A DNA stretch of 54,641 nt from a virus (Duplodnaviria > Caudoviricetes): the IMG/VR virus record IMGVR_UViG_3300007276_000061, positions 1 to 54,641 of that record. One strand, 5' to 3'. The notes below the pieces were generated by a model. That model had not been told where the DNA came from and made no database searches. It worked only from the letters and a program-made list of their open reading frames with translations. Made by a program: the position numbers and the translations under genes. This document shows positions 14,294 to 54,641 of the stretch, piece by piece. The stretch's first letter is position 1, and each line of letters begins with the position of its first letter.

Positions 14294-14299
14294 AAAACC

Positions 14300-16390: not shown

Positions 16391-16400
16391 ATAAATGTGT

Positions 16401-16486: not shown

Positions 16487-16495
16487 TAATAATAA

Positions 16496-16667: not shown

Positions 16668-16681
16668 TAAGTCTTAAAAGT

Positions 16682-16710: not shown

Positions 16711-16721
16711 GAGAAATTTAA

Positions 16722-16939: not shown

Positions 16940-16949
16940 AAGAATTACA

Positions 16950-17040: not shown

Positions 17041-17050
17041 AAATTATACA

Positions 17051-17105
17051 CAGAGTAGCATTTTGGTTTTCATTGGAAGTGAAAAGTTTTTGCTGTTACT
17101 ACTCT
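17051..17105 (-). ncRNA. Array unit 6
   Basis: AGAGTAGT-A-ACAGCAA...GCTACTCT-G. Confidence 0.7.
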
Positions 17106-17113
17106 AATTAGAA

Positions 17114-17169
17114 CAGGCTAGTGCTCTAGGAGCGTTCATATATGCCATGGTGGTATGCTGAACTAGCCT
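17114..17169 (-). ncRNA. Array unit 7
   Basis: AGGCTAGT-TCAGCA...ACTAGCCT-G. Confidence 0.7.
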
Positions 17170-17175
17170 TAAACT

Positions 17176-17246
17176 TGGAACTAGAGTAGGTAATCGAAAC
17201 CTATAGACCAGGGACACAACCCAGTCTCCGTCCTCCGGACTCTAGC
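17176..17246 (-). tRNA. tRNA-His(GTG), atypical
   Basis: Loop TTGTGTC, short D arm, extended anticodon stem, no encoded G-1, CCA. Confidence 0.75.
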
Positions 17247-17250
17247 AAAT

Positions 17251-17334
17251 TGGTGGGCAGTACAGGGTTCGAACCTGTCATGCTTACGCGGCGGATTTAC
17301 AGTCCGCTGTCCGTCCACTCGGAACATACTACCC
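17251..17334 (-). tRNA. tRNA-Tyr(GTA)
   Basis: Loop CTGTAAA, variable arm, CCA. Confidence 0.92.
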
Positions 17335-17514
17335 GTATTGTGGAATTGGATGAAACTTGAAGCCTTTACGCTTTCTCATTTCTTTGTGAAGATAATCATA
17401 CATCTTAATGCGCTCCTCTTGTGTACAGCGAGGCATTGAAATATAACTGCGTGAGCGTTGTCCTGGATGAATTTCGTAAGAAAACGCAACTCTAAATGAA
17501 CTCGGCTCTAGCAT
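17329..17514 (-). CDS. Hypothetical protein
   Basis: RBS AGGA; last 6 nt overlap tRNA-Tyr. Confidence 0.45.
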   Translation of the reverse strand: MLEPSSFRVAFSYEIHPGQRSRSYISMPRCTQEERIKMYDYLHKEMRKRKGFKFHPIPQYG

Positions 17515-17534
17515 TTTTTATCCTATAAGTTAAT

Positions 17535-17626
17535 TGGTAGGGACAGTGGGATTCGAACCCACAATGTGAACTTATCAGTAACAGATTTTAAGTCTGCCGC
17601 GTTTCAACCAGTTTCGCCATGCCCCC
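17535..17626 (-). tRNA. tRNA-Leu(TAA)
   Basis: Loop CTTAAAA, long variable arm, A73, CCA. Confidence 0.92.
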
Positions 17627-18298
17627 AAACTCTTCCGGCAATTTATTTCCTTTACTAAGGTTTGCTTCTGCCGTTAAATATTGTAAGTTATCTAATACAT
17701 GTAATCCGCATACATTCTCTCCCTGTAAAGGATAATAGTGGTCTACATGGTGTCCTTTAGGACAATCTTCATAGAATTTTAGTATAGCTAGTTCGTCAGA
17801 CCACTGCACGGTTCGCTTCAATAATAGCGCTCTACGTTTAGCATTTCTAGCGTTGAAACTAGCTCTATTGTCTATTAAATATTGTTCATGGTAATTCTTA
17901 TTTTTAGCGTACCAATCTTTATTACTTATTTGTCTACATGCTTTACACTGGTGGTAATAATTATCAGCAGACGAACGATCCTGTGAAAAGCTATTCTTTA
18001 GCAGAAAGCTTTTGCATGAAGAGCATTTTTTATAGTCTGATTGCTTTATAAACCAGTGCTCCCAGCTTTCACCACCACCAGTCAAAGAAATATTTGGAAA
18101 AAGCTTCTTTATGTTTCCTATAAATGTCTTTTCTGACCGCCCTAATAAATTCATCGCTTTAGGGCTTGAATGTGCGATAAACAAAGCATCTAAAAGTTCG
18201 TCTATAGTTATTGCCGGTTTATTCCCCCATTTTTTAGCAAAAATAGTTTCTGGCGTTAAACCTAAATTTTTATATATGCTTTTCTTAACTTCAATCAT
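17588..18298 (-). CDS. HNH homing endonuclease
   Basis: CSSC...CKAC; HVDHYYPL...GLHVLDNLQYL...NLSKGN; own promoter 18304-18332. Confidence 0.85.
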   Translation of the reverse strand: MIEVKKSIYKNLGLTPETIFAKKWGNKPAITIDELLDALFIAHSSPKAMNLLGRSEKTFIGNIKKLFPNISLTGGGESWEHWFIKQSDYKKCSSCKSFLLKNSFSQDRSSADNYYHQCKACRQISNKDWYAKNKNYHEQYLIDNRASFNARNAKRRALLLKRTVQWSDELAILKFYEDCPKGHHVDHYYPLQGENVCGLHVLDNLQYLTAEANLSKGNKLPEEFGGMAKLVETRQT

Positions 18299-18343
18299 CC
18301 AATATTATAACAAATTGGAGGACACAAGTCAAGAACTATTTAT

Positions 18344-18421
18344 TGGTAGCCCTACTCGGACTCGAACCGAGATAACTTCCGGACCTAAACCGGACGACTT
18401 TGCCAATTTGCCCATAGGGCC
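18344..18421 (-). tRNA. tRNA-Leu(TAG), short variable loop
   Basis: Loop TTTAGGT, A73, CCA. Confidence 0.88.
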
Positions 18422-18638
18422 ACTAATAAATAGCTCTTTTCATCATTTAAGTATTATATGCCATCTAAGCTTCAAAGTCAAGAACTAAAAACAACAAAGC
18501 CCCTTAACAGAGTCAAGGGGCTTTTGTCAACGACAAAATGTTACGGTTTTAACTAATATTTAGTTAAAACCGTGCCCTTTAGACAAGCATTATTACCCTC
18601 TACGAGGTTATAATTTTCAGTGCTGGCTAATAGATGGA

Positions 18639-18956
18639 TCATAATTTAATCAATGGAAGTCCTTTAAAGACTTCTCTCTGACTACGTTCAGTAATTGGGA
18701 ACGTAGCAATTGCTGTAATTTCGTTGTAGAAACCTTCGTGGTACTCAACGTATTCAATATCGTTAATATGCAGTAAATGTTTTACTGCTTCTAGCGTCTC
18801 CAAGTTGCTTACTGCAAGGTTGCAGAAGTGAAGCTGATTAGCTTCTCTCGGAGTTAATTTATTACCAAGTTCTAGAGCTACATGTGCCGTCTGCACTAAT
18901 TGCTGCGACTTGCTTATGTCAGTTCTAGTAACAAAGTAGGCATATTTCTTTGCCAT
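18639..18956 (-). CDS. Peptidyl-tRNA hydrolase 2 (PTH2)-like protein
   Basis: YFVTRTDI...VQTAHVA...E....EITAIA..P...KGLPL. Confidence 0.65.
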   Translation of the reverse strand: MAKKYAYFVTRTDISKSQQLVQTAHVALELGNKLTPREANQLHFCNLAVSNLETLEAVKHLLHINDIEYVEYHEGFYNEITAIATFPITERSQREVFKGLPLIKL

Positions 18957-18973
18957 TGTAATTCTTTCAAAAA

Positions 18974-19047
18974 TGGTGCGGGTATCGACGGCAGGGGATA
19001 CCCCGATCGTCGCTTGAGCACCCTACTATCACATAGGATACCCGCAC
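18974..19047 (-). ncRNA. tRNA-sized CCA-ended RNA without D/T consensus
   Basis: GTGCGGGTATC/GATACCCGCAC stem ending ...GCACCA; two internal hairpins. Confidence 0.55.
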
Positions 19048-19103
19048 ATATTTGGACGATGAGGGGCTTGCTTATGCAAGGCGTGTCTCAAAGCCACTAA
19101 TAT

Positions 19104-19162
19104 TGGTTGGGTGCTATGCTGTTTCTCAGCGATAGTTAAATTAACCTCTGTGGGACACTCCA
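19104..19162 (-). ncRNA. Possible CCA-ended mini RNA
   Basis: TGGAGTGT/GCACCCA-ACCA; internal GCTG-AGAAA-CAGC hairpin. Confidence 0.3.
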
Positions 19163-19166
19163 TAAA

Positions 19167-19245
19167 TGGTCTCGGAGGTGAGATTCGAACTCACGACTTC
19201 TCGGTCCCAAACCGAGCGACTTAGACCAGACTAGCCCACACCGAG
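19167..19245 (-). tRNA. tRNA-Pro(TGG)
   Basis: C1:G72, A73, loop TTTGGGA, CCA. Confidence 0.93.
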
Positions 19246-19256
19246 ATTATTTGAAT

Positions 19257-19335
19257 TGGTCGAGCGGGGTGGACTACTTATTACCACCACTGTGATCACT
19301 TATCATGGCGTCTCTTAAGATTGGACTACCGCTCG
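19257..19335 (-). ncRNA. Degenerate tRNA-like RNA with Pro-type acceptor
   Basis: CGAGCGG/CCGCTCG-A-CCA; T stem GGTGG/CCACC with 11-nt loop; no canonical anticodon loop. Confidence 0.55.
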
Positions 19336-19341
19336 ATGAAT

Positions 19342-19428
19342 TGGCCGGAACAAAACTGCGGGCGACTTAAATAAAGATTAGTCACCTCAACTTTCATGTG
19401 TTTTGCGCCCGAATGAAAAGTTCCAGCC
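19342..19428 (-). ncRNA. Pseudoknotted RNA
   Basis: GGCTGGAAC/GTTCCGGCC outer stem, TTTCAT/ATGAAA inner stem, CGGGCG/CGCCCG pseudoknot. Confidence 0.5.
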
Positions 19429-19434
19429 AAACTT

Positions 19435-19510
19435 TGGAGCGCGGAGCGGGATTTGAACCCGCAACCCTGGGATTAAAAGGCCCGTACTCTACCTATTGAG
19501 CTACCCGCGC
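19435..19510 (-). tRNA. tRNA-Lys(TTT)
   Basis: Loop CTTTTAA, CCA. Confidence 0.92.
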
Positions 19511-19808
19511 ATTTTGTTAGTTTTTCTTAGAAATCATTGCTTCGAGACGGGCAACTGCCCAATTCCAGCCCGCAACGATTTGATTTTTAACAAGGTATCC
19601 GAAGAACGTACCGGCTAGAAAGCCGAAGATAAAGCTAAGCATATTTGAAATCCACGTCTGCTCTCATAAGAGCCTGTGCCATATTCATGGCTTCATAGTT
19701 TGAAAAGTGTTTGGGAATGTAGAAGATCATCCTAGTCCGCTATCGCCTTCTTTTCTCATTTGATTATCCATCATACGCCGGTTCAGGACCAAAGTCAAGA
19801 ACTAAATT

Positions 19809-19896
19809 TGGAGGACGTGGTCGGGTTCGAACCGACAAGTTCCGTTAGGAAAGCAGATTAAGAGTCTGGTGGGCCAACCAATTGCCCAACACGTCC
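19809..19896 (-). tRNA. tRNA-Lys(CTT) with long variable arm
   Basis: Loop CTCTTAA; extra TTCC-TAAC-GGAA arm; 88 nt; CCA. Confidence 0.85.
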
Positions 19897-19897
19897 A

Positions 19898-20125
19898 TTA
19901 TTCGTAGTCTTCATCTTCAATTTCAATGCTATCAATGCAAGAACTGAGATAAGAAATGTGGTTTACAACTTCATTGACTTCATGAAATAGATCATTCCAT
20001 TCATCGGAGTCTTCATGATTTTCTGGATCGGCACGTTCTAGAGCATCTAGCTCTTGATACATACTTTCCAGGTCACTTTCCGCATCATTGCGGTCATCAA
20101 TAAGTCTTCGAAGTTCATCTTCCAC
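19898..20125 (-). CDS. Acidic hypothetical protein
   Basis: ORF directly after a promoter, fills gap between tRNAs. Confidence 0.55.
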   Translation of the reverse strand: MEDELRRLIDDRNDAESDLESMYQELDALERADPENHEDSDEWNDLFHEVNEVVNHISYLSSCIDSIEIEDEDYE

Positions 20126-20175
20126 AATGTATGATAGCCTTTTCAGCTTAAGAAGTCAAGAAAGATTTAAAGAAT

Positions 20176-20246
20176 TGGTCGTATAAGGTAGGATCGAACT
20201 ACCCAAGCCGAAGTTATGAGCCTCAGCTGCGCCCAGCGCTTATACG
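20176..20246 (-). tRNA. tRNA(CAT), Met or Ile2, atypical
   Basis: D arm GCGC-TGG-GCGC joined directly to acceptor; 7-bp anticodon stem; CCA. Confidence 0.75.
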
Positions 20247-20247
20247 A

Positions 20248-20583
20248 TTAATATCTACGTCCGAACTCACGATAGAATTGTCTATGCTGATCACGATTAG
20301 CACATACCATACGGTTTGTGTAAGGATCGCGCACTACAATATCGTAGCCTCGGCAACGCCCGCGCCAATAGGTCGGTTGTTGTGAATAAAATCTACGCTC
20401 TCGACGTTCATAGTCACGTCGATCGTAGCGGTGATGATCTCGTCTATCGTAACGAGGATGATCTCGACGCTGTTCGTAGCGGTGATCTTGCGTTCCGATT
20501 GTCACTGAAAGTGACTGAGCTTGTACTGGAGTGCTACTGATTAGAAGTAGGGATGCCATTGTGGCAATTGCTAGTTTCTTCAT
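20248..20583 (-). CDS. Secreted protein with RYDRRD repeats
   Basis: Signal peptide ending VQA; Arg/Asp-rich repeats; two Cys; RBS AAGGAG. Confidence 0.7.
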   Translation of the reverse strand: MKKLAIATMASLLLISSTPVQAQSLSVTIGTQDHRYEQRRDHPRYDRRDHHRYDRRDYERRERRFYSQQPTYWRGRCRGYDIVVRDPYTNRMVCANRDQHRQFYREFGRRY

Positions 20584-20600
20584 AATATCTCCTTAAATTA

Positions 20601-20686
20601 TGGCGGTTGATGAAGTAATCGAAACCTCAAGACTCTCACCTTGGCAGGGATTTCAAGTCCCCTTTGACACCTTGCCGCCATCAACC
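20601..20686 (-). tRNA. tRNA-Ser(TGA)
   Basis: Loop CTTGAAA, variable arm, G73, CCA. Confidence 0.88.
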
Positions 20687-20691
20687 GTAAG

Positions 20692-20767
20692 TGGTGCAAC
20701 CCGTCGGGATCGAACCGACATCCTGGGCTTTTCAGACCCGTGCGTGAACCATCATTGCTAGAGTTGC
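20692..20767 (-). tRNA. tRNA-Phe(GAA)
   Basis: Loop CTGAAAA, CCA. Confidence 0.92.
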
Positions 20768-20926
20768 GTTATCTGTAATTATTGAGTTTAAAGCTTCTAC
20801 CCATTTGATAGCCTTTTTGCCAAGCACAATTTGAGCTTTTAAAAATACCTTCACCTTTTAGGCCTGCTTCATACCCTAATTCTAATTGAGTTTTAGGTTT
20901 TATAAACATATATTTACTTTATAGTT

Positions 20927-21011
20927 TGGATGCGGAGGTAGGACTCGAACCTACAGGTATCTTTCGAAACTGGTACCAAAAACCAGCGCCTTACCATTAG
21001 ACTACTCCGCA
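20927..21011 (-). tRNA. tRNA-Gln(TTG) with enlarged variable region
   Basis: U1:A72, loop TTTTGGT, about 15-nt variable region, CCA. Confidence 0.88.
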
Positions 21012-21018
21012 AAACTTG

Positions 21019-21093
21019 TGGTGCGCCGAGCCGGACTCGAACCGACAATCCGGTCATTATGAGTGACAAGCTTTACCATTAAGCTATCAGCGC
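21019..21093 (-). tRNA. tRNA(CAT), elongator Met or Ile2
   Basis: Loop CTCATAA, CCA. Confidence 0.9.
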
Positions 21094-21100
21094 AAAATAT

Positions 21101-21174
21101 TGGTAGCAGATACAAGAATCGAACTTGTGATGGGCGATTATCAGTCGCACGTTATACCATTTAACTAATCTGCC
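21101..21174 (-). tRNA. tRNA-Ile(GAT)
   Basis: Loop CTGATAA, CCA. Confidence 0.92.
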
Positions 21175-21186
21175 ATAAGAACTTAA

Positions 21187-21259
21187 TGGTACCCCTAGTC
21201 GGAATCGAACCGACCGCGACAACCGTGTAAAAGTCGTCTGCTATCCCAGAGCCAGAGGC
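21187..21259 (-). tRNA. tRNA-Val(TAC), atypical D arm
   Basis: Loop TTTACAC, 7-bp anticodon stem, CCA. Confidence 0.82.
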
Positions 21260-26823: not shown

Positions 26824-26844
26824 TCTAGTTCCTTTAAAAGTTAA

Positions 26845-27240
26845 GTGGCCCGTTCTGTTGCCAGGTGGAACCCATACCCCGGAAACTCAAGCCGCTAGGC
26901 GGAGTTCCGATACAAAGTTATCGTTTGCATTTATAAAGTGACACTTTGTCAGGCAATAATCTCAAACTATCTCATTTCACGTCAGTCGATTGCCAAAACG
27001 CCCACATCATAAATTCTATCAGGTCTTTACACTACAGCTAGTATCACCTATGCGACGATTGCCCTAAATCGCTCCCTCCGAGTTATGAGTCGGCCGTGCT
27101 TGGAGGCTTACAAGACCTCAGGACTAAACTTTTCGATATAGGGACAAGTCCTTGTAAAACCAGCCTATATCTAGATAGAATTTATGGTGTAGGCGAGGAG
27201 AGTCGAACTCCTGTCCTGCACGTCTTTTGATAATCGTCAC
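26845..27240 (-). ncRNA. ssrA: Circularly permuted two-piece tmRNA
   Basis: Acceptor piece (T arm, CGCCTAC-A-CCA, ends 27185) precedes coding piece (starts GTGGGCG at 27005); G3:U70; tag 26928-26887 reads ANDNFVSELRLAA*. Confidence 0.93.
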
Positions 27241-27353
27241 CGATTATAATGTAACTCTCTACAGAGAGTATTATTTAACGAATCACTCGAAGAGCACTCA
27301 TTATTTAGTCCTTTCATTTGATTTAGATATAATATCAAAATCCGGGACTAAAG

Positions 27354-35705: not shown

Positions 35706-37208
35706 TTAAAGGCCTGCTCGCGCACGCTCTTTGATTTCATCCCACAGATCACAGAATGCATCAATGCCGTCATGCTCAAAGTCAAACTCGACAAAAGCGC
35801 TTTCCGGGTGGTTACTAGCTTCTTCGAACGTCAAACCGTCCGTAGTGAAAAACGAACCGTCTTCAGCTTCAAAGGTGTTAACGAAGCCACGGAACGAGCG
35901 CTTGATGCCATCATCCGTGATAGGGTCTTTGAATAGAGCTTGCTCTTCACCGCCGAAGATACCACCTGTAGCCTTCATGGCGAAGCCATAAGTGTCGCGA
36001 GTGTTATGTTGGTATGTGAACGAACCAATACCCAGAACAACGTTCGAGCTAGCAAAGCCATTCTTGGCCAGGCGATCAAAGATGTCGCTAGCGCGTTCCA
36101 GAGTGATCGAGTCACCATAGATCAGGCCAATATGCGAATCAAGAACCTTGAAACCCTTCGAGTTGGTTGTACCACCGAATACTTCCCACAGGAGTTGGAT
36201 AGCACCCTTATATTCCGGCGAGCCAGGCTCTGCATCCAGATTACCGGCAATAATATCAACCGGATTACCAGAATCGGGACGAATAACAGCCTTACCATCA
36301 CGGCTCATAATCTGAGACTTAAGAGTCGGTAGGGTCTTAGTCAAAACGTCCCAGAAGTTCCACGTATCGGACACAATGCTAACAATACCACTAGGATAGT
36401 GCTTCAGCAGGCGTTCAAAAGTTTCCAGCTCGGAAGCTTGACCGCCAGCACACATAACGCTGTGTTCCGCAGCCGGAACCGAGCCATAATCAGCGATTTG
36501 GAAGCCCGGATAGTTGGCACGTGCGCCGAAGAGCGCAGGCAAGGTATCAGTACCATTGAAGTACAGCAGATGGCCGACTTGGCCAGCTTCAGCCGCTTCA
36601 AAAGCATCTAGACCACGCAGCGAGAAATCATGGCACTGCCAGTCAACGTGCAGATTGTCATCGCACGTACGAGTTGCCCACTTTTCGCATTCCTTACGGT
36701 AGTTTCGCGCGATAGACGCGATAACTTGCGACTTCCACAGTAACAGCGACAGCAGCGATTCAACGTAGTTAGTTACCCACGCAAAATCTTCATGCGTGTT
36801 ATAAACGGCCAGTTGAACAACGCCAGTCTTAGTAACCGTACCTTCTGGCAGGTACAGAACCTTAATCGGCAGATAGCCTAGCGTATGCAAATGATCAATG
36901 CGATCAAGTTGCACTTGAGTAGCAGGAACCTTCAGGAAGTCCTTATGGAACTGAGCATACTCCTCTAGAACATCTTCAACATCCTGGCCGAACCACTCAT
37001 TCCACATATTCTGCATTTGAATAAGTGCAGTAGAAATACCGAAGAATACGACAGAGTTGTCGCCATCAAGTTGACGACCCGATTGACGAGCAATCTTGTC
37101 CGAGCGCGGAACCCAAGTCGAGAACAGGAGTTCCATGTTCTCAGGGTACATGTCAGCGTGAGCCAGCTTGTAAGAGTCAGCAGCGAAAAGAGCGGGAGTG
37201 TTATACAT
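35706..37208 (-). CDS. Nicotinamide phosphoribosyltransferase-family protein (NadV/Namat-like)
   Basis: DSYKLAH, HDFSLRG, GTDT, PAAEHSVM, VSDTW, IRPDSG, YGDSIT, RDTYGFAMK, KDPITD; start at MYNTP. Confidence 0.9.
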   Translation of the reverse strand: MYNTPALFAADSYKLAHADMYPENMELLFSTWVPRSDKIARQSGRQLDGDNSVVFFGISTALIQMQNMWNEWFGQDVEDVLEEYAQFHKDFLKVPATQVQLDRIDHLHTLGYLPIKVLYLPEGTVTKTGVVQLAVYNTHEDFAWVTNYVESLLSLLLWKSQVIASIARNYRKECEKWATRTCDDNLHVDWQCHDFSLRGLDAFEAAEAGQVGHLLYFNGTDTLPALFGARANYPGFQIADYGSVPAAEHSVMCAGGQASELETFERLLKHYPSGIVSIVSDTWNFWDVLTKTLPTLKSQIMSRDGKAVIRPDSGNPVDIIAGNLDAEPGSPEYKGAIQLLWEVFGGTTNSKGFKVLDSHIGLIYGDSITLERASDIFDRLAKNGFASSNVVLGIGSFTYQHNTRDTYGFAMKATGGIFGGEEQALFKDPITDDGIKRSFRGFVNTFEAEDGSFFTTDGLTFEEASNHPESAFVEFDFEHDGIDAFCDLWDEIKERARAGL

Positions 37209-37209
37209 A

Positions 37210-37467
37210 TTAGTTAGTTTCCTCAACGAGTTCATAAGTTTTAGCGAAAATACTTGGTTTAATAGGCCAATGCTCACCAGTTACTCCGGTTGCGATCCAG
37301 TCTCCAGGAGATACAATATGGCCACCCTCTAGAGTGTCTACCCAGCCATAGGGTCCAATCCCTTTAATAATACCGTTACGATTATCATATTTAATAACAG
37401 CTGGATGATCCCCGGACTTAAACCACTGGGTTGCCTCAATCAAGGCAGTTTTTCTATATTTAGGCAT
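37210..37467 (-). CDS. Conserved phage protein
   Basis: IEATQW...TLEG...VSPGDWI..G..GE.WPIKP.IF.KTYE. Confidence 0.7.
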   Translation of the reverse strand: MPKYRKTALIEATQWFKSGDHPAVIKYDNRNGIIKGIGPYGWVDTLEGGHIVSPGDWIATGVTGEHWPIKPSIFAKTYELVEETN

Positions 37468-38299
37468 TTTGCTCCGAACGATCGAAAAGAGAGTGGATTT
37501 CAGTATAGTGCTTGAAGAGTTCTTCCTTACCACGAGAGAAGAGACCGTGAGTTACGTAAAGCTTCAACTCGCCAAAAGTATAGCGCTCGCGCAGGGCTTT
37601 AGCAATACTAATAAAGGTAGCGCCGCCATCGCAAAGATCGTCTACAACCCAGATAGTATCTGTAGGCAAAACTGCATCAGGTTTGTATACAATCTCATGA
37701 CCATTGATTTTACCGTCAACACGCGTTTTATCCGCGTAGATTACGCCAGCGCTGTATTCATGCGCAACAGCTTCTGCACGTTCGACCGCACCCTTGTCAA
37801 CTGCAACAACATGATCAATTTTATCATACGCAGGATTAAATTCTACTGCACGATTGAAGCATTCCAAAGGCTTCACAACTAGAACCGGAACGTCAAAGTC
37901 TTTCAGGCAATCAACCAAAACATGACTGTGCGGGTCGTAAACCGTTACCATATTAATCATCATACCAGCAATCATAGCGGCAGTAGCTTGAGCCGGAAGG
38001 CTCATACCGTCTTGCTCAATACGATCAGCACGTTGATCGGGCAGGGTCTCAATGACCAGATTGATCGTAGATCCACAGCAGTAACCGTCAATGGCACTGA
38101 TGACTTGATAAACGGCCATAATAGCTTCCGGCAAAGTGGTCTTCAGCGTAATAGTGAAGATCAAATTGCTAATACGAGAATACTTGATCTGTTCCAGACC
38201 ATCCAGATTAAATCGGAAGGAACCATCCGGGAACTCGTCCACGCGAACAGTGCAATCCGAAACTGTGAGCCAAGTCGTGGGGTCAGTGCGTTGTTTCAT
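37460..38299 (-). CDS. Ribose-phosphate pyrophosphokinase-family protein (Prs/Adps-like)
   Basis: FPDG, QRADR, DPHS, DKGA, VVDDLCDGGATF, YVTHG. Confidence 0.88.
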   Translation of the reverse strand: MKQRTDPTTWLTVSDCTVRVDEFPDGSFRFNLDGLEQIKYSRISNLIFTITLKTTLPEAIMAVYQVISAIDGYCCGSTINLVIETLPDQRADRIEQDGMSLPAQATAAMIAGMMINMVTVYDPHSHVLVDCLKDFDVPVLVVKPLECFNRAVEFNPAYDKIDHVVAVDKGAVERAEAVAHEYSAGVIYADKTRVDGKINGHEIVYKPDAVLPTDTIWVVDDLCDGGATFISIAKALRERYTFGELKLYVTHGLFSRGKEELFKHYTEIHSLFDRSEQNA

Positions 38300-41076: not shown

Positions 41077-41859
41077 ATGAGTAAAATTTGGACAGAACAT
41101 GAAATTAATTTTTTAACCCTCAATTATGCAAATAAGGGTGGTAAACACTGTGGCAATATTCTAAATAGATCAAGTCAATCTGTTATTAACAAAGCGGGAA
41201 GACTAGGATTAAAGTATAATCATTGGAAGAAAACTAATGAACAATATTTAGAAGAGCTATTAGAAAAAGAGATAGATTTACTACCTTTAGAACCTTATAT
41301 AGATAGTAAGACAAAAATAAAACATGAGTGTTTAAATGAGCATATTATAAGTATAAAACCCAATGATGTGTTAAACGGAGTAGGCTGCCCTATTTGTAGA
41401 GTTAGAACTCATGAAGACTATCAATCTTTAACTAAGTATAAAGTACTAGATACATATATAAATGCAAAAACTAATATAAGGCATGAATGCATTAAAGGTC
41501 ATGTTTGGTCAGCCAGACCCCAGTCTATATTGAGTGGTTCTGGCTGCCCTTCTTGTGCAACTCACGGCTTTAATCAGAATAAGCCTGGCATACTTTATTA
41601 TTTAAAAATAACTAAAAATAATCAAACTTACTATAAACTAGGTATTACTAATAGAACAGTAGCTGAAAGATTTGAGCGGGATAAAGATAAACAAATTAGT
41701 ATTATTCATCAAATATACTATAATAAAGGATTAGATGCAAAAGAACACGAGCAAAAACTGTTATTTAAATTTAAGCATAAACGAGTATTTGTACCTGGAT
41801 TTCTTAAGTCTGGCGGCAACTCTGAGCTCTTTGAGTATGATATTCAACCGTTTCAATAA
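41077..41859 (+). CDS. Putative homing endonuclease (HTH + Zn-ribbon + GIY-YIG/T5orf172-like), inverted orientation
   Basis: Paralog of 5823..6686 and 52887..53516; promoter TTGACA-16-TATAAT at 41043-41070, ATG 6 nt later. Confidence 0.75.
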   Translation: MSKIWTEHEINFLTLNYANKGGKHCGNILNRSSQSVINKAGRLGLKYNHWKKTNEQYLEELLEKEIDLLPLEPYIDSKTKIKHECLNEHIISIKPNDVLNGVGCPICRVRTHEDYQSLTKYKVLDTYINAKTNIRHECIKGHVWSARPQSILSGSGCPSCATHGFNQNKPGILYYLKITKNNQTYYKLGITNRTVAERFERDKDKQISIIHQIYYNKGLDAKEHEQKLLFKFKHKRVFVPGFLKSGGNSELFEYDIQPFQ

Positions 41860-47950: not shown

Positions 47951-48086
47951 AATAATTAATATAGCACAGGCAGAAACCAAAGTCAACACCTTTTTTATAG
48001 GTTCTTATCGGCAGCTCAAAACAATCTTTTACGTTTCAAAAAGCCTACAACAAAGATAAATCATCCTAACCTTCGAAAATTAGTTG

Positions 48087-48115
48087 TTGACTTTTGGCAT
48101 GACAACATATATAAT
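48087..48115 (+). promoter_or_regulatory. Plus-strand sigma70 promoter, divergent from 47950 gene
   Basis: TTGACT-17-TATAAT. Confidence 0.8.
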
Positions 48116-48120
48116 ATATG

Positions 48121-48270
48121 AAATAGCCGAGAACGAAGTTATTATGGCTACAGGGTGTTCCCTGAAGTGTTTAGATATGATTTTTAAATTACAGTAGAGC
48201 GGACGGAATTAAGGGAGGAAGCCACTGTATAGAAATCAGTCGTTATCTGAATTCTTCAGAGGGAACACCT
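48121..48270 (+). ncRNA. Rod-like structured RNA
   Basis: Nested stems GGTGTTCCCT/AGGGAACACC, GAAG/CTTC, TTTAGATA/TATCTGAA, TGATTT/AAATCA, TACAGT/ACTGTA around a purine-rich loop. Confidence 0.55.
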
Positions 48271-48642
48271 AGATTTTAATAAAGCTTCTACGAAGTTATT
48301 AAGTCGTTTTAATCAACTTAAAGCGCTGTAATCAATAAGTTTTCTAACTTATTTAATTCATTATATCAAGATTCTTAAGTGGTATTGTGTTTAAAAATCT
48401 GCAATAATTTCTGGTTCGCTAATGAAGAACTGATTAATGCACACTACTAATCAAGAGCGATTCGGACCAAATTTGGGCGGAACCTCTATAAGGATCTCTC
48501 CCGCCCCGTGCTAGAGCCTTCCTAGCAGATTAATCTTCCTAGTTTCGAAAACGATAAAACCCACACCGGCCTTTCGGTTGTTGAACGACGTTCAACAAGC
48601 CTTGGCTAGTGTGGGTTAATTTGTATCTATTGCGTGCCTCTG

Positions 48643-48921
48643 CTAGTGCCACACGGACCCGTGAGGGTCCAGGCCTGCCTTAGCAAATGCGACCCATTTC
48701 GAGGCCTCGTCTTCCATTAGCGACTTCATTGGACTGAAGACAAACTCTGTAGCACAACTTCGACATTTATACTTTGGAACAAGAAAGTCAAACTCGGCTA
48801 CGCGTTCCTCGTCTAGTGGAACTTCTAGGTGCTCCCATTCTCCAATGTGAGTGAGCGCATCTTTTTTGCACGAAGTGCAATGGCTTGCTGCTGTTATCTG
48901 ATAGAAGTCATGTGTTGACAA
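48643..48921 (-). CDS. Zinc-ribbon protein
   Basis: CTSC...CRSC. Confidence 0.55.
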   Translation of the reverse strand: MSTHDFYQITAASHCTSCKKDALTHIGEWEHLEVPLDEERVAEFDFLVPKYKCRSCATEFVFSPMKSLMEDEASKWVAFAKAGLDPHGSVWH

Positions 48922-49102
48922 TTATTCTCCTCGTGACCCAACCTAGGGGCCACGCTAGTATTAGTGTAATCACTAAAAATAGACTATTTTTAGCTAGTAG
49001 GACAATGCCACCGAGGATGGCAAAGAATGCAAAAATCAGTAGGAAGCCAATTAGAAAGTTCTCTAGAAATTCGTCAGTAATCATCGAAAATGTCTCTAGC
49101 AA
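48908..49102 (-). CDS. Membrane protein
   Basis: Two hydrophobic segments. Confidence 0.5.
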   Translation of the reverse strand: MLETFSMITDEFLENFLIGFLLIFAFFAILGGIVLLAKNSLFLVITLILAWPLGWVTRRIIVNT

Positions 49103-49395
49103 TAAGTCCTACAAAGAGAACAACTAGGAGCCCAAGCAGGCTGAGTCCAATAATACTCATTACTTGTGGGTAAATATTGAATAGGGCAATCAATACCAGA
49201 ATAGGTATGATTGCCGCAAGCCCTGCTAGGAAAGTTTTAATAAGTTCTACCATTGAGGTACAGGTCCTTGAATTGTGTAACGTTGAACTGGGCCCTCTAG
49301 AAAATCTAGAACAAAGTCCTCTACGGCAATCTCGACTTCACGTCGTGTTTCGCCGAAAAACAGCTTGTCATACACAAGCGCATAATAATACTTAA

Positions 49396-49701
49396 TCATT
49401 TCTTCGCCTTAAACTTAAAGAAAGCACTATAAGTTTCATAGCACCCAGGCTTATCATACTCGACCTTCCAGCCTTGCCCCCGATAAACATCTTCAATATT
49501 AAGCCAGCCTTTGTCAAAAATCTCTTGTCGACTTAGAAAGCCAGACTTTGACAGGATCAAGTTAATAACATCTTCCTGCTTTACCTTGGCCGAACCTTCA
49601 GTAAAATTATCAGCAATCAGTTCATTGAATGCTTCAAATACAATTTCAGGAATGTTCTTCTGCTTCTGAGCAACTACTTCGTTAGGACTAATCGCGGGCA
49701 T
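49396..49701 (-). CDS. Conserved phage protein
   Basis: IP..VFEAFNELI...WLNIE.VYR..GWKVEYDKP. Confidence 0.65.
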   Translation of the reverse strand: MPAISPNEVVAQKQKNIPEIVFEAFNELIADNFTEGSAKVKQEDVINLILSKSGFLSRQEIFDKGWLNIEDVYRGQGWKVEYDKPGCYETYSAFFKFKAKK

Positions 49702-49925
49702 TACTCACCTTCTTCCATAATAGCAACAAGCATAGAATCTGCCCGAACGTCGTGGAATTCCTCGAATTCACCACCACCAGTCCACCTATCCCACACTACA
49801 GTGTAAGAAGGCTCACCATAATACTTAATATCATAGGGACCTGCAGCGATATAGCCTTCCCAACGTGCATCAGGGTCTGCGCCAGCTTCGCCGGCCATAT
49901 ATACTTCATCGTTAATGTCGAACAT
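49701..49925 (-). CDS. Hypothetical protein
   Basis: Purine-rich RBS; promoter upstream. Confidence 0.55.
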   Translation of the reverse strand: MFDINDEVYMAGEAGADPDARWEGYIAAGPYDIKYYGEPSYTVVWDRWTGGGEFEEFHDVRADSMLVAIMEEGE

Positions 49926-50092
49926 ATCTCTCTTTCCTTATTCTCATAAAAGTATAGCCCCTGACACGTCAAATGTCAAGGGCTATTTTCATTTTCGGTA
50001 CTCAAGCCAGTTCACAATATGCGCTACCATAGAGCCAATACCAAATCCCGCGCAAACATCCCAAAGAAAGTCTCCAATAAGAGTCCAATTCA

Positions 50093-50665
50093 TTAGTCTT
50101 TCCACCCACTTAATTGTGTACGAAGCATGATACCCGGAAGCTGGCAATTGTCCCAGTATTCTTTAACAGCCTGTTGTAGTACTCCATGAGCATTACACAG
50201 CTCATCTACGTACTTGATCATCAAGCGATTAGGAATCATAGTAGGTCGCGCTTCAGCAACCAAACGAACAGCTTCACGTGCTTCATTAAGTTCATCATTG
50301 CCAGGTGATTTAGAATGGTCGAAGAGGATACCAATAAGCATCGCAGCACTTCGGCTGCGTCCTGCGTGGCAGTGAATCAACAGTCGATCTGAGTCGTCCA
50401 AATCCCAGCAGAACTTGAGAACATCACATACATCTTCTCGCGTAGGAAGAATAAGCGGATGCTTAAGCTCCCACACAGTATCTTCTAGCGTCTCTGGCTC
50501 TACATGACCTTCAAAATCATGAAAAACCTTGATCAAGTGATGATCACCCTGGCTAGGAAGGTCGAAGTTCAAATCCGGGCCAACCAGCGAAACGATTCGC
50601 GTAGGCCAACCCTCCTGCATAATCTCATAAGCACGATGTGCATTATCAATCTTAAATTCAAACAT
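50093..50665 (-). CDS. Protein tyrosine/dual-specificity phosphatase-like protein
   Basis: CX5R motif IHCHAGRSRS; RP..IPN. Confidence 0.85.
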   Translation of the reverse strand: MFEFKIDNAHRAYEIMQEGWPTRIVSLVGPDLNFDLPSQGDHHLIKVFHDFEGHVEPETLEDTVWELKHPLILPTREDVCDVLKFCWDLDDSDRLLIHCHAGRSRSAAMLIGILFDHSKSPGNDELNEAREAVRLVAEARPTMIPNRLMIKYVDELCNAHGVLQQAVKEYWDNCQLPGIMLRTQLSGWKD

Positions 50666-50892
50666 TATGCTTTCTCCATTGCACGATGCACATATCGTAG
50701 TGCATTAACCATATAAGCCGCATCAGTGTTACCTTCATCAGCCAGCTTCTCGAAATCTGCGAACAGTGTACAAATCTTTAGAAACTTAGTTCCGTCAGCA
50801 CCGACCCAAATCGTCATGTCACTTAGCTGTTCTCTAGATTTAGTCACTCGATCCGATCTCCGTAAATACTTCTTGTGCTTTTTCACGATCAA
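50665..50892 (-). CDS. Hypothetical protein
   Basis: TAATG coupling. Confidence 0.5.
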   Translation of the reverse strand: MIVKKHKKYLRRSDRVTKSREQLSDMTIWVGADGTKFLKICTLFADFEKLADEGNTDAAYMVNALRYVHRAMEKA

Positions 50893-51006
50893 TCAGACCC
50901 AGATCAAAAAGCTGACGATACACTTCACAGGCCTCTGTATTAGAGACGCCTATAGTATCAGCGATAACTTCAAAAACTATAGACTGACCCCTGTCAAACA
51001 TAGTCA

Positions 51007-51246
51007 TTAGAATTCCTTCTCAAAATCAATTTGATGAGCTTCTTCGTCGTTAACCCACCGATGATAACGCTCAGCATCGATATCATCCTTAATCGCTAGA
51101 ACTTGTCCTAGCATAAAAGCATAACCAAAAGCTTCATAGTCAAAAATAGCAGTATCTAGTGGATATTCATCCGAAAAGTCTGCTCCATACTCGTCGGCAT
51201 GTTGCTCCCAGAGATTTTCTGCGTCGTCGATCGTGTACTCGCTCAT
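51007..51246 (-). CDS. Acidic hypothetical protein
   Basis: Start at MSEYT. Confidence 0.55.
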   Translation of the reverse strand: MSEYTIDDAENLWEQHADEYGADFSDEYPLDTAIFDYEAFGYAFMLGQVLAIKDDIDAERYHRWVNDEEAHQIDFEKEF

Positions 51247-52282
51247 ATTCTTCTCTTTCATAAAAATTAAGTGGATATTCGGGATGATCAAAAGCTAGGA
51301 AGTAAGCCATTGCAGTTGGGTAGTCTTCGAACTCTGTAACTACTTGATCAGTCTTGTGCTCAGTAACAACGTATTTAGTCGTTGCCCTCAGGGAGATATT
51401 CTTCGTAGCGAATATCGTAGAGATCGCTATGGTCACCGCAGCCACGAATCCACTTCCAAGCATCTTCTTCATTGTCAAAAATCTTCTCTACTTCCCCGGT
51501 ATACGCTCTAATTACTTCAAATTGCATGTATTATCCGACCCCTTGTCTTGATCCTCCGCCACTCTAAATGATAGGTTAACATTATTGTAAAGCTCTAGAA
51601 TCTTACGCACATTCAGCAATCCGCGAACGCTAATAAAAGCCCAACCGTTATTACGGTCATAGATTTCGTACTTAATCTGTCTCATTTATCTAGCCTTTCC
51701 ATTCGACGATTCCAGAATACCTCTTTCTCAGTATCGTAGTCGATCAAACCTTGTTCAGCCAACCACGAGTACACAGCGCGGAAAGAGTCTTCATCTACGC
51801 CAGTAACTTCAACACCCTCATTACGAAGGTGAATATGTTCCACATCAAACCAATCGCTCATGTCATTTCCCTTATTGAATGTATACTATACGCCAACCCA
51901 GATCAAAAGTCAAGACACATTTTCAGGAACTCTGTTCAAAAAACGTGTGGAGCGGACCACAGCGGGTTTTCGGCGCTTTTTCTACTGCTTCGGTGCAATA
52001 AATCGTATCAAACCAGAATAAATCCGCTTAAATCCAGACAAATAACCTTAACCCATAATAACTTGACCAGCTACTCAAATTAGACTCAATCTGGGCGAAA
52101 AATGCGACGATTCACTCAAATTTACTCTTGACACTGTACTTACAAAAGTGTAAAATCGGCGCAGCGCGCTTGAAAGAGGAGAAATTTAAGGAAAAGCTGA
52201 AAAAGTACTTGAATTGAGCTTAAATCTATGCTAATATACCAGGGTGGGGAGGGGCCAGGCCTCAGCTTACAATTTAGACACG

Positions 52283-52312
52283 AAAAACCCAGCTAGTTGC
52301 AACTAGCTGGGT
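52283..52312 (-). terminator. Intrinsic terminator ending the large-RNA block
   Basis: ACCCAGCTAGTT/AACTAGCTGGGT stem followed by T run on minus. Confidence 0.75.
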
Positions 52313-52329
52313 AAAACGTTTTAAATTAT

Positions 52330-52780
52330 TTCATGTGCCGCAAGAATCGAACTTGCAGGGTTTGCAATCCCTTCGCCAGAAGGTCACACCTAGGAATCGA
52401 ACCCGTTCTGCCCATTAAGTGGCAGCCCACCAGGGTGTTTTATGTTTGCGACGGGACTTTATTAACCCGCACCTTCCCATAGGGACGACCATTCATCTTA
52501 GTCTACGCCTTGAGGTTCTCACTCATACGCCTCGCGACGTAATCACAGCGACCGGCACCATCTTCCGGATTAGCATATCGTGGTTTACTCACGCTCACGT
52601 CTATCCCATGACGGAGAGGGCCAACAATTGCTTGCTGAATTTTATCGGGATATTAGCTGCCTGTTAAGACCCGTAGCAGCACCTTTCACGCTCTAGAAAC
52701 GCGGCCATTGGCTCATGACTTCCAATAGCTCCCGGGCTCATAATGTGCGCACTCGCGCCCGGTAGACAAATACACACTAT
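52330..52780 (-). ncRNA. About 450-nt structured RNA ending in two tRNA-like domains
   Basis: No minus-strand ORF, many hairpins, two GTTCGATTC T arms; bounded by hammerhead cleavage site and terminator. Confidence 0.6.
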
Positions 52781-52821
52781 GACCTAAACAGGTTTCGCTC
52801 CTATGAGCTCATCAGATAGTG
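52775..52821 (-). ncRNA. Type I hammerhead ribozyme
   Basis: CACTAT-CTGATGA-GCTC(ATAG)GAGC-GAAA-CCT(GTTT)AGG-TC-ATAGTG; full core, GUC cleavage triplet. Confidence 0.88.
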
Positions 52822-52886
52822 ATATAAATTTTTGTATACTAAAAATAATTATTGACACTCATATGAGTCTATGCTATAATCTTTAA

Positions 52887-53516
52887 ATGATAAGAAAATA
52901 TTGGACCCCCGAAGAGATCGAATTCCTAAAAATAAATTACCCCAGTAAGGGGGTAGACTATTGCATGCAGTTTCTTAATAGAGAGCGAAAAGCCTTAACT
53001 TTAAAAGCAAACAGACTAGGCTTACGAGTAGAAAACTATAGTAGTAAGTTTAAAAGAACAAATGAACAGTATGACTTAGACTTATTTGACCGAGAGATTG
53101 ATGCTGTTGCAGTAGAAGACTATATTGATAACAAAACTCCTATTTTACATGAGTGCCCCAAAAATCACCGGTGGAAAGCCAGACCTATCGATATACTACA
53201 CGGATCAACCTGCCCTAGTTGTGCAGAATACGGATTTAACTTAGAAAAGCCTGCTATAGTTTATCATATTAGCTTCGAATACGAGGATATTGAGTACTAT
53301 AAGCTAGGCATCACTAATAGGACAGTTCAAGAGCGTTTTGCTAGTGACTGGAAAAGATATAACATGAAAGTTATATGGATTAAGCAGTTCAATTGGGGGC
53401 TAGAAGCTAGAGAGCTAGAAAAGCTCTTATTGGCTAAATACTCAAATTACTTAATTAATACCGGAGCACTTATAAGCGGTAACTCAGAGACTTTAACTGT
53501 TAAAGTCTCTGAGTAA
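52887..53516 (+). CDS. Putative homing endonuclease (HTH + Zn-ribbon + GIY-YIG/T5orf172-like), inverted orientation
   Basis: Paralog of 41077..41859; promoter TTGACA-17-TATAAT at 52852-52880, ATG 6 nt later. Confidence 0.75.
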   Translation: MIRKYWTPEEIEFLKINYPSKGVDYCMQFLNRERKALTLKANRLGLRVENYSSKFKRTNEQYDLDLFDREIDAVAVEDYIDNKTPILHECPKNHRWKARPIDILHGSTCPSCAEYGFNLEKPAIVYHISFEYEDIEYYKLGITNRTVQERFASDWKRYNMKVIWIKQFNWGLEARELEKLLLAKYSNYLINTGALISGNSETLTVKVSE

Positions 53517-53517
53517 A

Positions 53518-53974
53518 TTTCGTGGCACAGTCGGGCCTTCTGGACTCGTCAGATAGTGTTTGAGCAAAAGGTTCAGTAGAGATCCGCTGGTGGCCAAACC
53601 AGTTTCCCATAACATCCGCTAATCTAAGGCCTTTGCAAGCGGCGATAGTACAGTAGATCGGTCAATTTTCCAGCATCTTGCAATATCCGGATATTTGGTT
53701 CTGATCAATACCTGTAGCTCAAATTTTGTTATCCCGAAGCTATGCCGTTCGGGACCACACGACGCCAGGTCTAATCCTTTAAGCTGCGCCTGGTCATGCA
53801 TTACTTAGAGGGAGGTATATTGGTTGCTAGTCTACAGCCAGAGGACCGTCGGATGCGCATCCTAGATCTATAACTCTTACCAGGTACACCGCCGCTATCG
53901 GGATCAATTCGATAACCGTGCCTCACAGTAAGTTAACCTAGTTCGACCAAATTTTCGTGACACAGTCGGGCCTT
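53518..53974. repeat. 22-nt direct repeat TTTCGTGRCACAGTCGGGCCTT (53518-53539, 53953-53974)
   Basis: 21/22 identity. Confidence 0.9.
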
Positions 53975-54158
53975 ACGAGCACCGAGCCATTTTATTCGAG
54001 AGCCTCAAGCCCTCAGGTTAATCCGTGCCACCCGCTATCGCGGATCTTGTTAGACAGCATTTCACTGTCCTGGAGACATCACGGGTCTCTATCCGGAAGT
54101 TCTTCACGGGCTCAACTCCGGCCCAACCGCTCCTATTACCCGAGCTAGTCATCGCTGG
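53518..54158 (-). ncRNA. Two tandem structured RNA domains (about 210 and 430 nt) with a shared 3' motif
   Basis: Promoter TTGACA-17-TATAAT at 54193-54165; 22-nt repeat at both 3' ends pairs with upstream partners; no credible ORF. Confidence 0.55.
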
Positions 54159-54201
54159 CTTTCCATTATAGCCTATTTGGGGAGGCTTGTCAAGAACTAA
54201 T

Positions 54202-54337
54202 TTGAGGGAAACCTGATTTCTTCCTCCAGGCTCATCGTGCTTACTAAAGCAGTTTTACCCAGGCGGACCCTGGCTACTCGTTCGCCGCTTAAGTGCGCCT
54301 CCGACACCTTTCGGGTGGTTGCCGCCACTTCCCTCAA
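54202..54337 (-). ncRNA. About 135-nt structured RNA with its own promoter
   Basis: TTGAGGGAA/TTCCCTCAA closing stem; promoter TTGACT-17-TATACT at 54375-54347. Confidence 0.6.
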
Positions 54338-54384
54338 TCTTTATATAGTATAGCCCAGTCAGCTGGCAAAGTCAAGAACTTTTT

Positions 54385-54484
54385 TGGCGACTCCTAAGAG
54401 CGAGCATTTTCCATTAGGAAAACCTTGGTCTTTCGGGGTTACTCGTTTGAGCCGCGGTACTGTTAACCCTTATTCCCCTGACTC
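54385..54484 (-). ncRNA. About 100-nt structured RNA with its own promoter
   Basis: Promoter TTGACT-17-TATACT at 54520-54492; CGAGTA/TGCTCG stem with hairpins; no ORF. Confidence 0.45.
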
Positions 54485-54641
54485 TTTAAATAGTATAGAA
54501 TGGCTCAGGGTGAAAGTCAAGAACTTTTTTCAGTATTGGCCTGGTACTAATTGTTTTAGCACTTGGTAATAAATTGACTTGACACTGTACTGCCGGCGCA
54601 CGTGAAAATATAAGTTGCATTGATACTCTACTCCGGCGCAA

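Follow-up and report, generated by a model that had tools for sequence, protein, structure and literature searches.

A probable non-coding RNA operon in a tRNA-rich phage, with a predicted hammerhead ribozyme and a widespread small RNA

Introduction

To our knowledge, large non-coding RNAs of phages are few and none has a known function. Those nearest in kind to the locus described here are GOLLD and ROOL, which we take to be Rfam families RF01998 and RF03087. Our subject is a block of about 2.2 kb (positions 52283-54520) in a 54.6-kb fragment of an IMG/VR viral contig (IMGVR_UViG_3300007276_000061; the whole stretch of 54,641 nt is called the window below). In the parts of the cryo-EM report on GOLLD, ROOL and OLE drawn on here, loop changes that preserve a palindrome are held to support symmetric kissing loops (bioRxiv 10.1101/2024.12.08.627333), and hammerhead ribozymes in phage settings are, in the cited portion of PMC3088659, thought to cut long transcripts into pieces. 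Neither large RNA family matches the block, as the original prediction, made from the sequence by eye, had suspected. An Rfam covariance search of 51500-54641 at E up to 10 gave the hammerhead family HH9 alone, the next matches having E above 3; in particular, GOLLD, ROOL, group I and II introns, RNase P, twister, pistol and hatchet had no match in the block. At Rfam gathering cut-offs, a search of the whole window returned nothing there.

We find that the block is probably a conserved non-coding RNA operon of a tRNA-rich phage, which would be transcribed from tandem strong promoters by the host sigma-70 RNA polymerase. The structural description of this operon is well supported, and what is said of function we infer. 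The original prediction had proposed a multi-RNA non-coding locus, an idea now backed by two relatives in which the block is syntenic and non-coding, by a ribozyme inside it and by covarying helices in its first small RNA, RNA1 (37 sequences). It had not included the hammerhead, the reading of the endonuclease gene as a later insertion, a single long RNA or the widespread family to which RNA1 belongs.

Results

Layout of the block and its conservation

The block is at the right end of the contig, with 121 bases left beyond the first promoter, and about 31 kb from the tRNA island of the window (24 tRNA genes, 9051-21259, minus strand). In order of transcription its main features are:

54492-54520, minus strand: promoter P1, TTGACT, 17 nt, TATACT (10/12), with an A tract before it
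54386-54485, minus strand: RNA1, a pseudoknotted, circularly permuted (type B) member of a widespread family with covarying helices
54347-54375, minus strand: promoter P2, TTGACT, 17 nt, TATACT (10/12)
54200-54341, minus strand: RNA2, a lineage-specific small RNA with a terminal stem, 54337-54329 with 54211-54202
54165-54193, minus strand: promoter P3, TTGACA, 17 nt, TATAAT (12/12)
53517-54158, minus strand: variable 5' part of the long RNA, as far as the endonuclease cassette
52852-53517, plus strand: endonuclease cassette with its own promoter, open reading frame (ORF) and hairpin
52775-52821, minus strand: intact compact type I hammerhead, from the HH9 match and the minimum-energy fold
52313-52780, minus strand: 3' domain RNA, with conserved islands and covarying hairpins in comparison with the relatives L005 and L062
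52282-52312, minus strand: intrinsic terminator, stem 52312-52287 of 11 pairs (6 G-C), then a T run

The three consensus minus-strand promoters that had been read at 54520, 54375 and 54193 are thus all present, each with a 17-nt spacer and set 145 and 182 nt apart, and so is the strong terminator placed at 52312. Counting promoter-like sites is by itself weak evidence, since the 19 found in 48000-54641 are only modestly above the 12.8 (sd 3.3) in shuffled sequence. P1-P3 are convincing because in all three an A tract is followed by GTTCTTGAC, an extended context that recurs at the promoters of L005 and L062, and because tandem arrays are kept in these relatives. There the excess over shuffles is larger (7 sites vs 1.6 in L005, 8 vs 1.5 in L062), with four tandem same-strand promoters in each (L005 4585, 4736, 4846 and 4984; L062 2061, 2214, 2380 and 2499). 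The terminator is kept in L005 at 6371-6396. An inverted endonuclease gene had been named as the only protein gene, and the sole sizeable ORF is indeed at 52887-53516 on the plus strand; the remaining ORFs, of 40-82 aa on both strands, bear out the statement that none is otherwise credible, and none is common to all three loci.

Two elements of the original prediction fare less well. The block had been called hairpin-rich; its folding energy is not beyond chance when compared with shuffles (z = -1.44 for the 3' RNA, -1.26 for the 5' part of the long RNA, -2.15 for RNA2 and -0.26 for RNA1). Five RNAs had also been predicted, and the sizes of about 100, 135 and 450 nt do correspond to RNA1, RNA2 and the 3' RNA. 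The proposed boundary between RNAs of 210 and 430 nt falls on a 22-nt direct repeat (53974-53953 and 53539-53518) within one long transcript, so the partition into five does not stand.

L005 was reached through a phosphatase-like neighbour protein (window 50093-50665, 64% identity), and L062, a metagenome contig, through a 23-base RNA pattern taken from a conserved island. In both, the block is oriented relative to its neighbours as in the window and has the same order: a promoter array, small RNAs, and then one ORF-poor RNA of 1.0-1.4 kb ending at terminators. The long RNA begins GAAAGCC at all three loci. Over 1159 aligned columns of the long RNA, L005 and L062 have 61% identity; 16 of the 23 indels in this alignment are not multiples of 3, and the mismatches fall evenly on the three codon phases (141, 143, 137), leaving no three-base periodicity. 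No ORF of at least 40 aa is common to the blocks of the window, L005 and L062, and L005 and L062 share one antisense ORF pair at 43% identity. The terminal stem of RNA2 covaries with L005, where RNA2 is partially conserved (4618-4732), and its internal blocks are shared with L062 (2245-2375). A copy of RNA1 was not found in the L005 and L062 stretches examined, which indicates that the small RNAs of the block are interchangeable modules.

In wastewater, shale and freshwater sequencing runs there are assembled contigs that match parts of the block at 80-99% identity, and therefore further relatives exist. Other searches for the long RNA yielded little. The pattern GTCATGAGC..GCCGCGTT hit 4 loci, 3 of them chance matches in high-GC coding DNA; CCGGAAGATGGTGCCG hit 50 loci, none related by blastn; and CAGGTTTCC..TAGTTCTTGAC retrieved the contig of L005 only, as did the protein anchors. 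Two more contigs encode a neighbouring 107-aa protein and lack the RNA block. Among bacterial genomes and metagenome-assembled genomes (MAGs; genome_contigs) there were 0 homologues of the long RNA, and among GenBank phages neither the 3' RNA nor RNA2 had a match. As a side observation, the neighbour that led to L005 (50093-50665, minus strand) is a 190-aa ORF containing the string HCHAGRSRS, which reads like a Cys-X5-Arg phosphatase motif.

A predicted hammerhead ribozyme within the long RNA

The HH9 match covers 52833-52760 (33.1 bits, E 9e-6, in the permissive search of 51500-54641). The elements of the ribozyme, all on the minus strand, are:

52821-52816 with 52780-52775, minus strand: stem I, CACUAU with AUAGUG, 6 bp
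52815-52809, minus strand: core CUGAUGA, matching the CUGANGA consensus
52808-52797, minus strand: stem II, GCUC/GAGC, 4 bp
52796-52793, minus strand: conserved core GAAA
52792-52782, minus strand: stem III, 4 bp, with the A15.1-U16.1 closing pair
52781, minus strand: C17, a cleavage-site nucleotide that is not G

The minimum-energy fold reproduces the three stems, and this model should place the cut between 52781 and 52780. The same hammerhead core occupies the homologous place in L005 (5592-5678) and L062 (2959-3050). All three stems vary in sequence among the three loci with pairing kept; stem I, for instance, reads CACUAU/AUAGUG, CGCUUU/AAAGCG and CGCUUA/UAAGCG. Stem III carries inserts of 60-70 nt in L005 and L062, which explains why Rfam misses these hammerheads (a search of both blocks gave nothing at E up to 1). 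A related contig from sequencing run X7 is alike down to 52783, three bases upstream of the predicted cut, and then diverges, which fits a different stem III before the same cleavage site. The bare core pattern is found 11 times in the window, where 5.1 would be expected, and of these matches the two in the block alone are relevant; no other hammerhead was detected in 8000-45000 at E up to 0.01.

In the mechanism that we propose, transcription from P3, with read-through from P1 and P2, would yield a precursor about 1.87 kb long, running from 54158 to about 52285. Once cut by the hammerhead, its 5' piece would measure about 1.38 kb and contain the endonuclease gene in antisense. The 3' RNA, about 470-500 nt long and starting with a 5'-OH, would presumably be the conserved, functional part.

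The 3' RNA is better conserved than the 5' part, and the conserved islands lie outside the cassette. The alignment of the three loci shows in the 3' RNA, among other structures:

52687-52729, minus strand: adjacent twin hairpins H-a (52729-52704) and H-b (52703-52687)

H-a has an 8-bp covarying stem with several compensated pairs around an invariant loop, AAGUCAUGAG. The loop of H-b is UUCUAGA in the window and UACUAGU in both relatives. Across the twin-hairpin alignment, 5 of the 18 predicted pairs show changes on both sides, and two more hairpins of the 3' domain (about 52585-52570 and about 52570-52552) have constant loops between changing stems. Both twin loops contain a palindrome: UCAUGA in H-a, and UCUAGA in H-b, which became ACUAGU in the relatives by changes at both ends that kept it palindromic. 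The 3' RNA may self-associate through two adjacent palindromic hairpin loops, and our guess is that it could act in trans during infection as a structural RNA, as GOLLD and ROOL are thought to. We considered whether the long RNA ends in a tRNA or tmRNA and rejected this, as neither ARAGORN nor Rfam makes a call inside 52283-54520; strings resembling a T loop near 52400-52340 have no conserved counterpart in L005 or L062.

RNA1 and its family

RNA1 contains the following elements:

54477-54476 with 54457-54456, minus strand: helix P2-inner, paired 2/2
54475-54458, minus strand: loop GAAUAAGGGUUAACAGUA
54455-54450 with 54392-54387, minus strand: helix P2-outer, paired 6/6
54444-54442 and 54441-54436, minus strand: GAG and UAACCC
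54422-54407, minus strand: P1 hairpin
54402-54393, minus strand: CGCUCUUAGG

A 50-nt stretch of RNA1 is 90% identical to RaK2-like Klebsiella phages. Searching with RNA1 recovered at least 46 records of GenBank phages that belong to several families, including Stephanstirmvirinae, Vequintavirinae, Demerecviridae, Mosigvirus and Rhizobium phages, and the element is unannotated in all but a few. It lies between tRNA genes in 6 of the 8 phage records examined; the nearest tRNA follows about 220 nt downstream in phage My1, and a Rhizobium phage has no annotated tRNA in the surrounding stretch. A degenerate pattern added 41 IMG/VR loci and 13 loci in bacterial genomes or MAGs. Of these, 39 sequences could be assigned a type, and covariation was scored on the 37 unique ones (two loci, L077 and L103, were untypable and excluded). 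The family blocks CUCUUAGG, GAAUAAGGGUUNNNAGUA and GAGUAACCCCGAAA are all present in the RNA1 of the window, with its P2 helices in register.

The P2 helices carry the strongest covariation. P2-outer is canonical in 185 of 185 cells (37 sequences, 5 positions), with 4 to 6 pair types per position, while a slid partner gave 29-40% paired and 0 of 1000 shuffles reached the observed value; the register was chosen among four spacer lengths, which slightly favours pairing. P2-inner is canonical in 73 of 74 cells. A GGGUUN/NAACCC helix is plausible and weakly tested, since its pairing is invariant but for the sixth pair (A-U 25, U-A 2, G-C 1, U-U 9). The GAA and AGUA strands beside P2-inner resemble what we take to be a loop-E motif.

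Two arrangements of the same core account for the set. Type A (n = 16) has P1 open and P2 closed, and its P1 averages 8.1 bp vs 3.4 bp in shuffles; type B (n = 21, the window included) has P1 capped by a loop or short linker and ends in P2. tRNA genes were found in 15 of 17 type A loci, and none in 17 of the 20 type B loci scanned. Some type B copies, such as L106 with its consensus promoter and U tail, resemble independent genes. The family had no match in Rfam 15 (the window at E up to 10, 7 type A loci and 4 genome loci), and, within the collection of papers covered and supplements aside, searches by sequence string or keyword found no published description of the core motif. We suppose, as a guess, that RNA1 might be an independent module binding a tRNA-related or transcription-related factor.

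Nine cores sit in a third architecture, a tRNA-like scaffold (8 of the 13 genome hits, L113-L117 and L120-L122, and the IMG/VR locus L104). Here the RNA1 core replaces the anticodon arm and long variable arm of a type II tRNA. An acceptor stem, in which 5 to 7 of 7 pairs form, is present along with a Leu-like D arm and a covarying 5-bp T arm. The T loop is UGCAAAU in 7 of the 9, UGCAAUU in L115 and UUCGAAU in L104, and one copy has a CCA end. ARAGORN and Rfam make no call on these scaffold RNAs. Seven copies are on Patescibacteria or related MAG contigs of up to 184 kb. In six loci of the Patescibacteria type a frame with the start M-(R/K/I)-I-L-S-I follows 8-12 nt after the end of the RNA, and in five tRNA-Val(GAC) lies about 1.2 kb away. 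At L121, the sole locus with ORFs listed, we take the 390-aa downstream ORF, recognised by eye, to be TsaD and the next to be valyl-tRNA synthetase; what the other five loci show is a frame with a similar start.

Some further copies deserve mention in their own right. In L077, L078, L091 and L112 (IMG/VR), a divergent member with a longer P2 directly follows tRNA-Leu(CAA) in a tRNA island; the typing rules placed it in neither type. In Klebsiella phage RaK2 (L003) the family element stands beside tRNA genes, with an unannotated tRNA-Gly-like sequence just before it; a stretch of about 1.9 kb (1130-3020) that adjoins these tRNA genes has one small annotated gene, several promoter-like sites and hairpin-rich stretches, and resembles a multi-RNA region.

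These data bear on two other accounts, one of the block and one of RNA1. The block might be regulatory DNA, an early-promoter bank with repeats or an origin, whose RNAs are functionless read-through by-products. Tandem promoters 145 and 182 nt apart would suit such a role, as would the GCGCCG...GTCAAG repeats that flank the block in the window and L005, the weak folding z-scores and the poorly conserved 5' part of the long RNA. We nevertheless consider this improbable: a complete hammerhead is kept in the same place at three diverged loci, the helix covariation of RNA1 is perfect and the RNA has a stand-alone gene elsewhere (L106), a dedicated terminator is conserved, and the loops of the 3' domain stay constant between changing stems.

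About equally improbable, in our judgement, is that RNA1 is a boxA antitermination element that loads Nus factors, so that untranslated operons and tRNA arrays escape Rho. The string CGCUCUUA at 54402-54395 is identical to lambda boxA as given in the cited part of PMC2724277, RNA1 comes first in an untranslated unit of about 2.2 kb that has no terminator until 52312, and type A copies sit in untranslated tRNA arrays. Yet the exact 8-mer occurs in only 11 of the 37 sequences, the invariant part being CUC(U/A)UA, and the Patescibacteria copies read GCUCAUA. The string also lies partly within a proposed helix (CUC with GAG), and the presence of closing stems, a circular permutation and tRNA-like scaffolds points to a discrete folded RNA more than to a nut site.

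The endonuclease cassette

Features of the cassette and its surroundings are:

53953-53974, minus strand: direct repeat copy 1, AAGGCCCGACUGUGUCACGAAA, homologous to L005 about 5405-5436 and L062 about 2852-2880
53526-53558, minus strand: relic of the 5' half of an ancestral hammerhead, aligning to the L005 hammerhead at 5592-5625
53518-53539, minus strand: direct repeat copy 2, differing from copy 1 at 1 of 22 positions and overlapping the relic
53479-53517: hairpin at the cassette end
52887-53516, plus strand: endonuclease ORF, 209 aa, PHROG 681 'endonuclease' (E 1e-25)
52852-52880, plus strand: cassette promoter, 12/12, with TG

Both Pfam matches of the ORF are sub-threshold (MUG113, 17.3 bits with a cut-off of 22.3; DUF4379, a treble-clef zinc finger, 22.1 with a cut-off of 24.5). 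It is 36% identical to a second endonuclease at 41077-41859 (plus strand), which lies on the strand opposite to its neighbours and matches T5orf172 weakly (17.2 vs 20) and DUF4379 above cut-off. No ribozyme was detected near this second gene, by core pattern or by Rfam in 8000-45000.

On the far side of the cassette from the intact hammerhead, the relic retains CACUAU, CUGACGA and a weakened remnant of stem II, and has CGAC in place of GAAA; its stems are not formed in the predicted fold. A 14-mer, CACUAUCUGA(C/U)GAG, brackets the cassette at 53558-53545 and 52821-52808. The elements matching the 22-nt repeat in L005 and L062 are much less alike than the two window copies. Neither relative has an endonuclease gene inside its long RNA, so the gene, present in this phage only of the three loci, appears to be a later insertion into one long RNA. 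We suggest that a homing endonuclease cassette of the T5orf172 type entered the ancestral hammerhead, at its long stem III or linker, and inactivated this ribozyme. A compact replacement hammerhead beside the unchanged cleavage site would then have taken over, re-using the stem I strand CACUAU, and gene conversion between the 22-nt repeats may have helped to erase the old core.

With such an invader present, the whole block might be the debris of selfish elements, a homing endonuclease with its ribozyme and the remains of introns or older insertions, tolerated in a dispensable region. The second endonuclease of the same family at 41077-41859, the decayed hammerhead copy and the 22-nt repeat agree with this, as does a distantly related endonuclease-like ORF just downstream of the L062 block (53% identity over 30 aa). 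We rate it lower still than the two accounts above, since the relatives keep long RNA and hammerhead without an endonuclease inside, no group I or II intron matches at E up to 10, and the conserved islands are outside the cassette. Least probable is that the block encodes small proteins missed by the ORF rules, as the 40-82 aa ORFs on both strands and the antisense pair (43% identical between L005 and L062) include none common with the window, the indels are mostly out of frame and there is no three-base periodicity.

Other features of the window

The region just past the block terminator (51940-52245, minus strand) has an extended -10 element, TGGTATATT, near 52240, that is conserved in L005 near 6440. 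About 285 nt of ORF-poor sequence comes next, with short GATTTA-type repeats, and ends at a terminator (51961-51946); it may be another RNA or a protein-binding region. The repeats flanking the block, GCGCCG...AGT...GTCAAG, are at 54580-54641 and 52125-52190 in the window and at 3900-4080 and 6490-6530 in L005, and one of them reads on the opposite strand as a promoter (52128-52156, 11/12). Elsewhere the window carries replication genes, NAD-salvage genes (35706-38299, minus strand: nicotinamide phosphoribosyltransferase and ribose-phosphate pyrophosphokinase, PHROG 448 and PHROG 619) and a permuted, two-piece tmRNA gene (26844-27294, minus strand; Rfam RF04321 79.5 bits, alpha_tmRNA 64.7 bits). 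Inside the tRNA island, a 495-aa ORF (14813-16300, minus strand) matches PHROG 850 'RNA-binding protein' and Pfam DUF2828, DUF7788 and VWA, and presumably resembles the Ro60/TROVE architecture. The small RNAs of the phage might conceivably serve this protein as Y RNAs; Y RNA families had no match in Rfam scans of the whole window at gathering cut-offs or of 8000-45000 at E up to 0.01.

Discussion

We therefore return to the reading of the block as a conserved non-coding RNA operon, against which several points weigh. The locus is known from DNA alone, and the four sequencing runs compared are assembled contigs, which carry neither RNA ends nor strand. The hammerhead scores under the Rfam gathering cut-off (33.1 vs 52), with the outer stem I extension of the model unmatched, and in L062 a U-U mispair at the first pair of stem II means that this copy may be slow or dead. 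The folding z-scores of the long RNA (-1.3, -1.4) are not significant, and its 5' part shares only short conserved islands with L005 and L062. As the long RNA is known from three sequences, its covariation is anecdotal. Hairpins with palindromic loops are not enriched over shuffles (4/2.4, 9/6.8, 3/4.8, 1/3.1), so the idea of self-association rests on one conserved loop pair, noticed post hoc. Finally, the order of the insertion events is a reconstruction, not an observation.

A bolder proposal, which we put forward as possible and on balance doubtful, is that the locus holds two new RNA classes. One would be the RNA1 module, a ribozyme or a tRNA-linked regulator or mimic, with its GAA/AGUA motif and pseudoknot shared by many phage families and Patescibacteria chromosomes. 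The other would be an ornate long RNA that cleaves and assembles itself, its 3' domain joined by palindromic kissing loops and its hammerhead rescued by replacement after the endonuclease invasion.

The long RNA adds a new family of large phage RNAs, for which hammerhead cleavage is the proposed maturation step. The locus also offers a natural example of a ribozyme that took in an endonuclease gene and whose loss, it seems, was made good by another ribozyme. Of broader reach is the RNA1 family, with a conserved core of about 50 nt, textbook covariation and three architectures. Its tRNA-like gene in Patescibacteria links phage tRNA islands to tRNA-related biology.

Comparison with known systems

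The ribozyme has the catalytic core, three stems and open stem I of HH9 (RF02275), as described in the cited part of Perreault et al. 2011 (PMC3088659). It differs from known HH9 examples in lying inside a long non-coding RNA and not between genes, in the 60-70-nt stem III inserts of its relatives, in a window score below the family cut-off, and in that the window's dead and intact copies bracket an endonuclease gene.

Like GOLLD and ROOL, the long RNA is a large non-coding RNA of a tRNA-rich phage whose palindromic loops may act as symmetric contacts, and like GOLLD, in the parts of bioRxiv 10.1101/2024.12.08.627333 used here, it joins a conserved 3' region to a variable 5' region. Unlike them, it has no sequence or structure match to either family, lies away from the tRNA island and carries a predicted hammerhead cut.

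Type A copies of the RNA1 family recall T4 rnaC and rnaD, small stable RNAs encoded between or beside phage tRNA genes. Identity with these was rejected, as the T4 sequences lack the family's conserved blocks, and the RNA1 of the window, unlike them, is promoter-driven and far from tRNAs. The 8-mer CGCUCUUA at the start of an untranslated operon is reminiscent of lambda nut and rrn boxA, whereas here it is embedded in a conserved pseudoknotted fold and confined to 11 of 37 family members. The scaffold copies share an acceptor stem, a Leu-like D arm and a T arm with type II tRNAs; unlike these they lack an anticodon arm, and the window RNA1 has no tRNA-like scaffold at all.

Finally, the cassette, an endonuclease gene with its own promoter among RNA genes, is like T4 segB, which lies between T4 tRNA genes. 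It is unlike segB in its family, probably T5orf172/MUG113-like with a putative treble-clef zinc finger, and in its position on the opposite strand, inside an RNA gene and beside a ribozyme.

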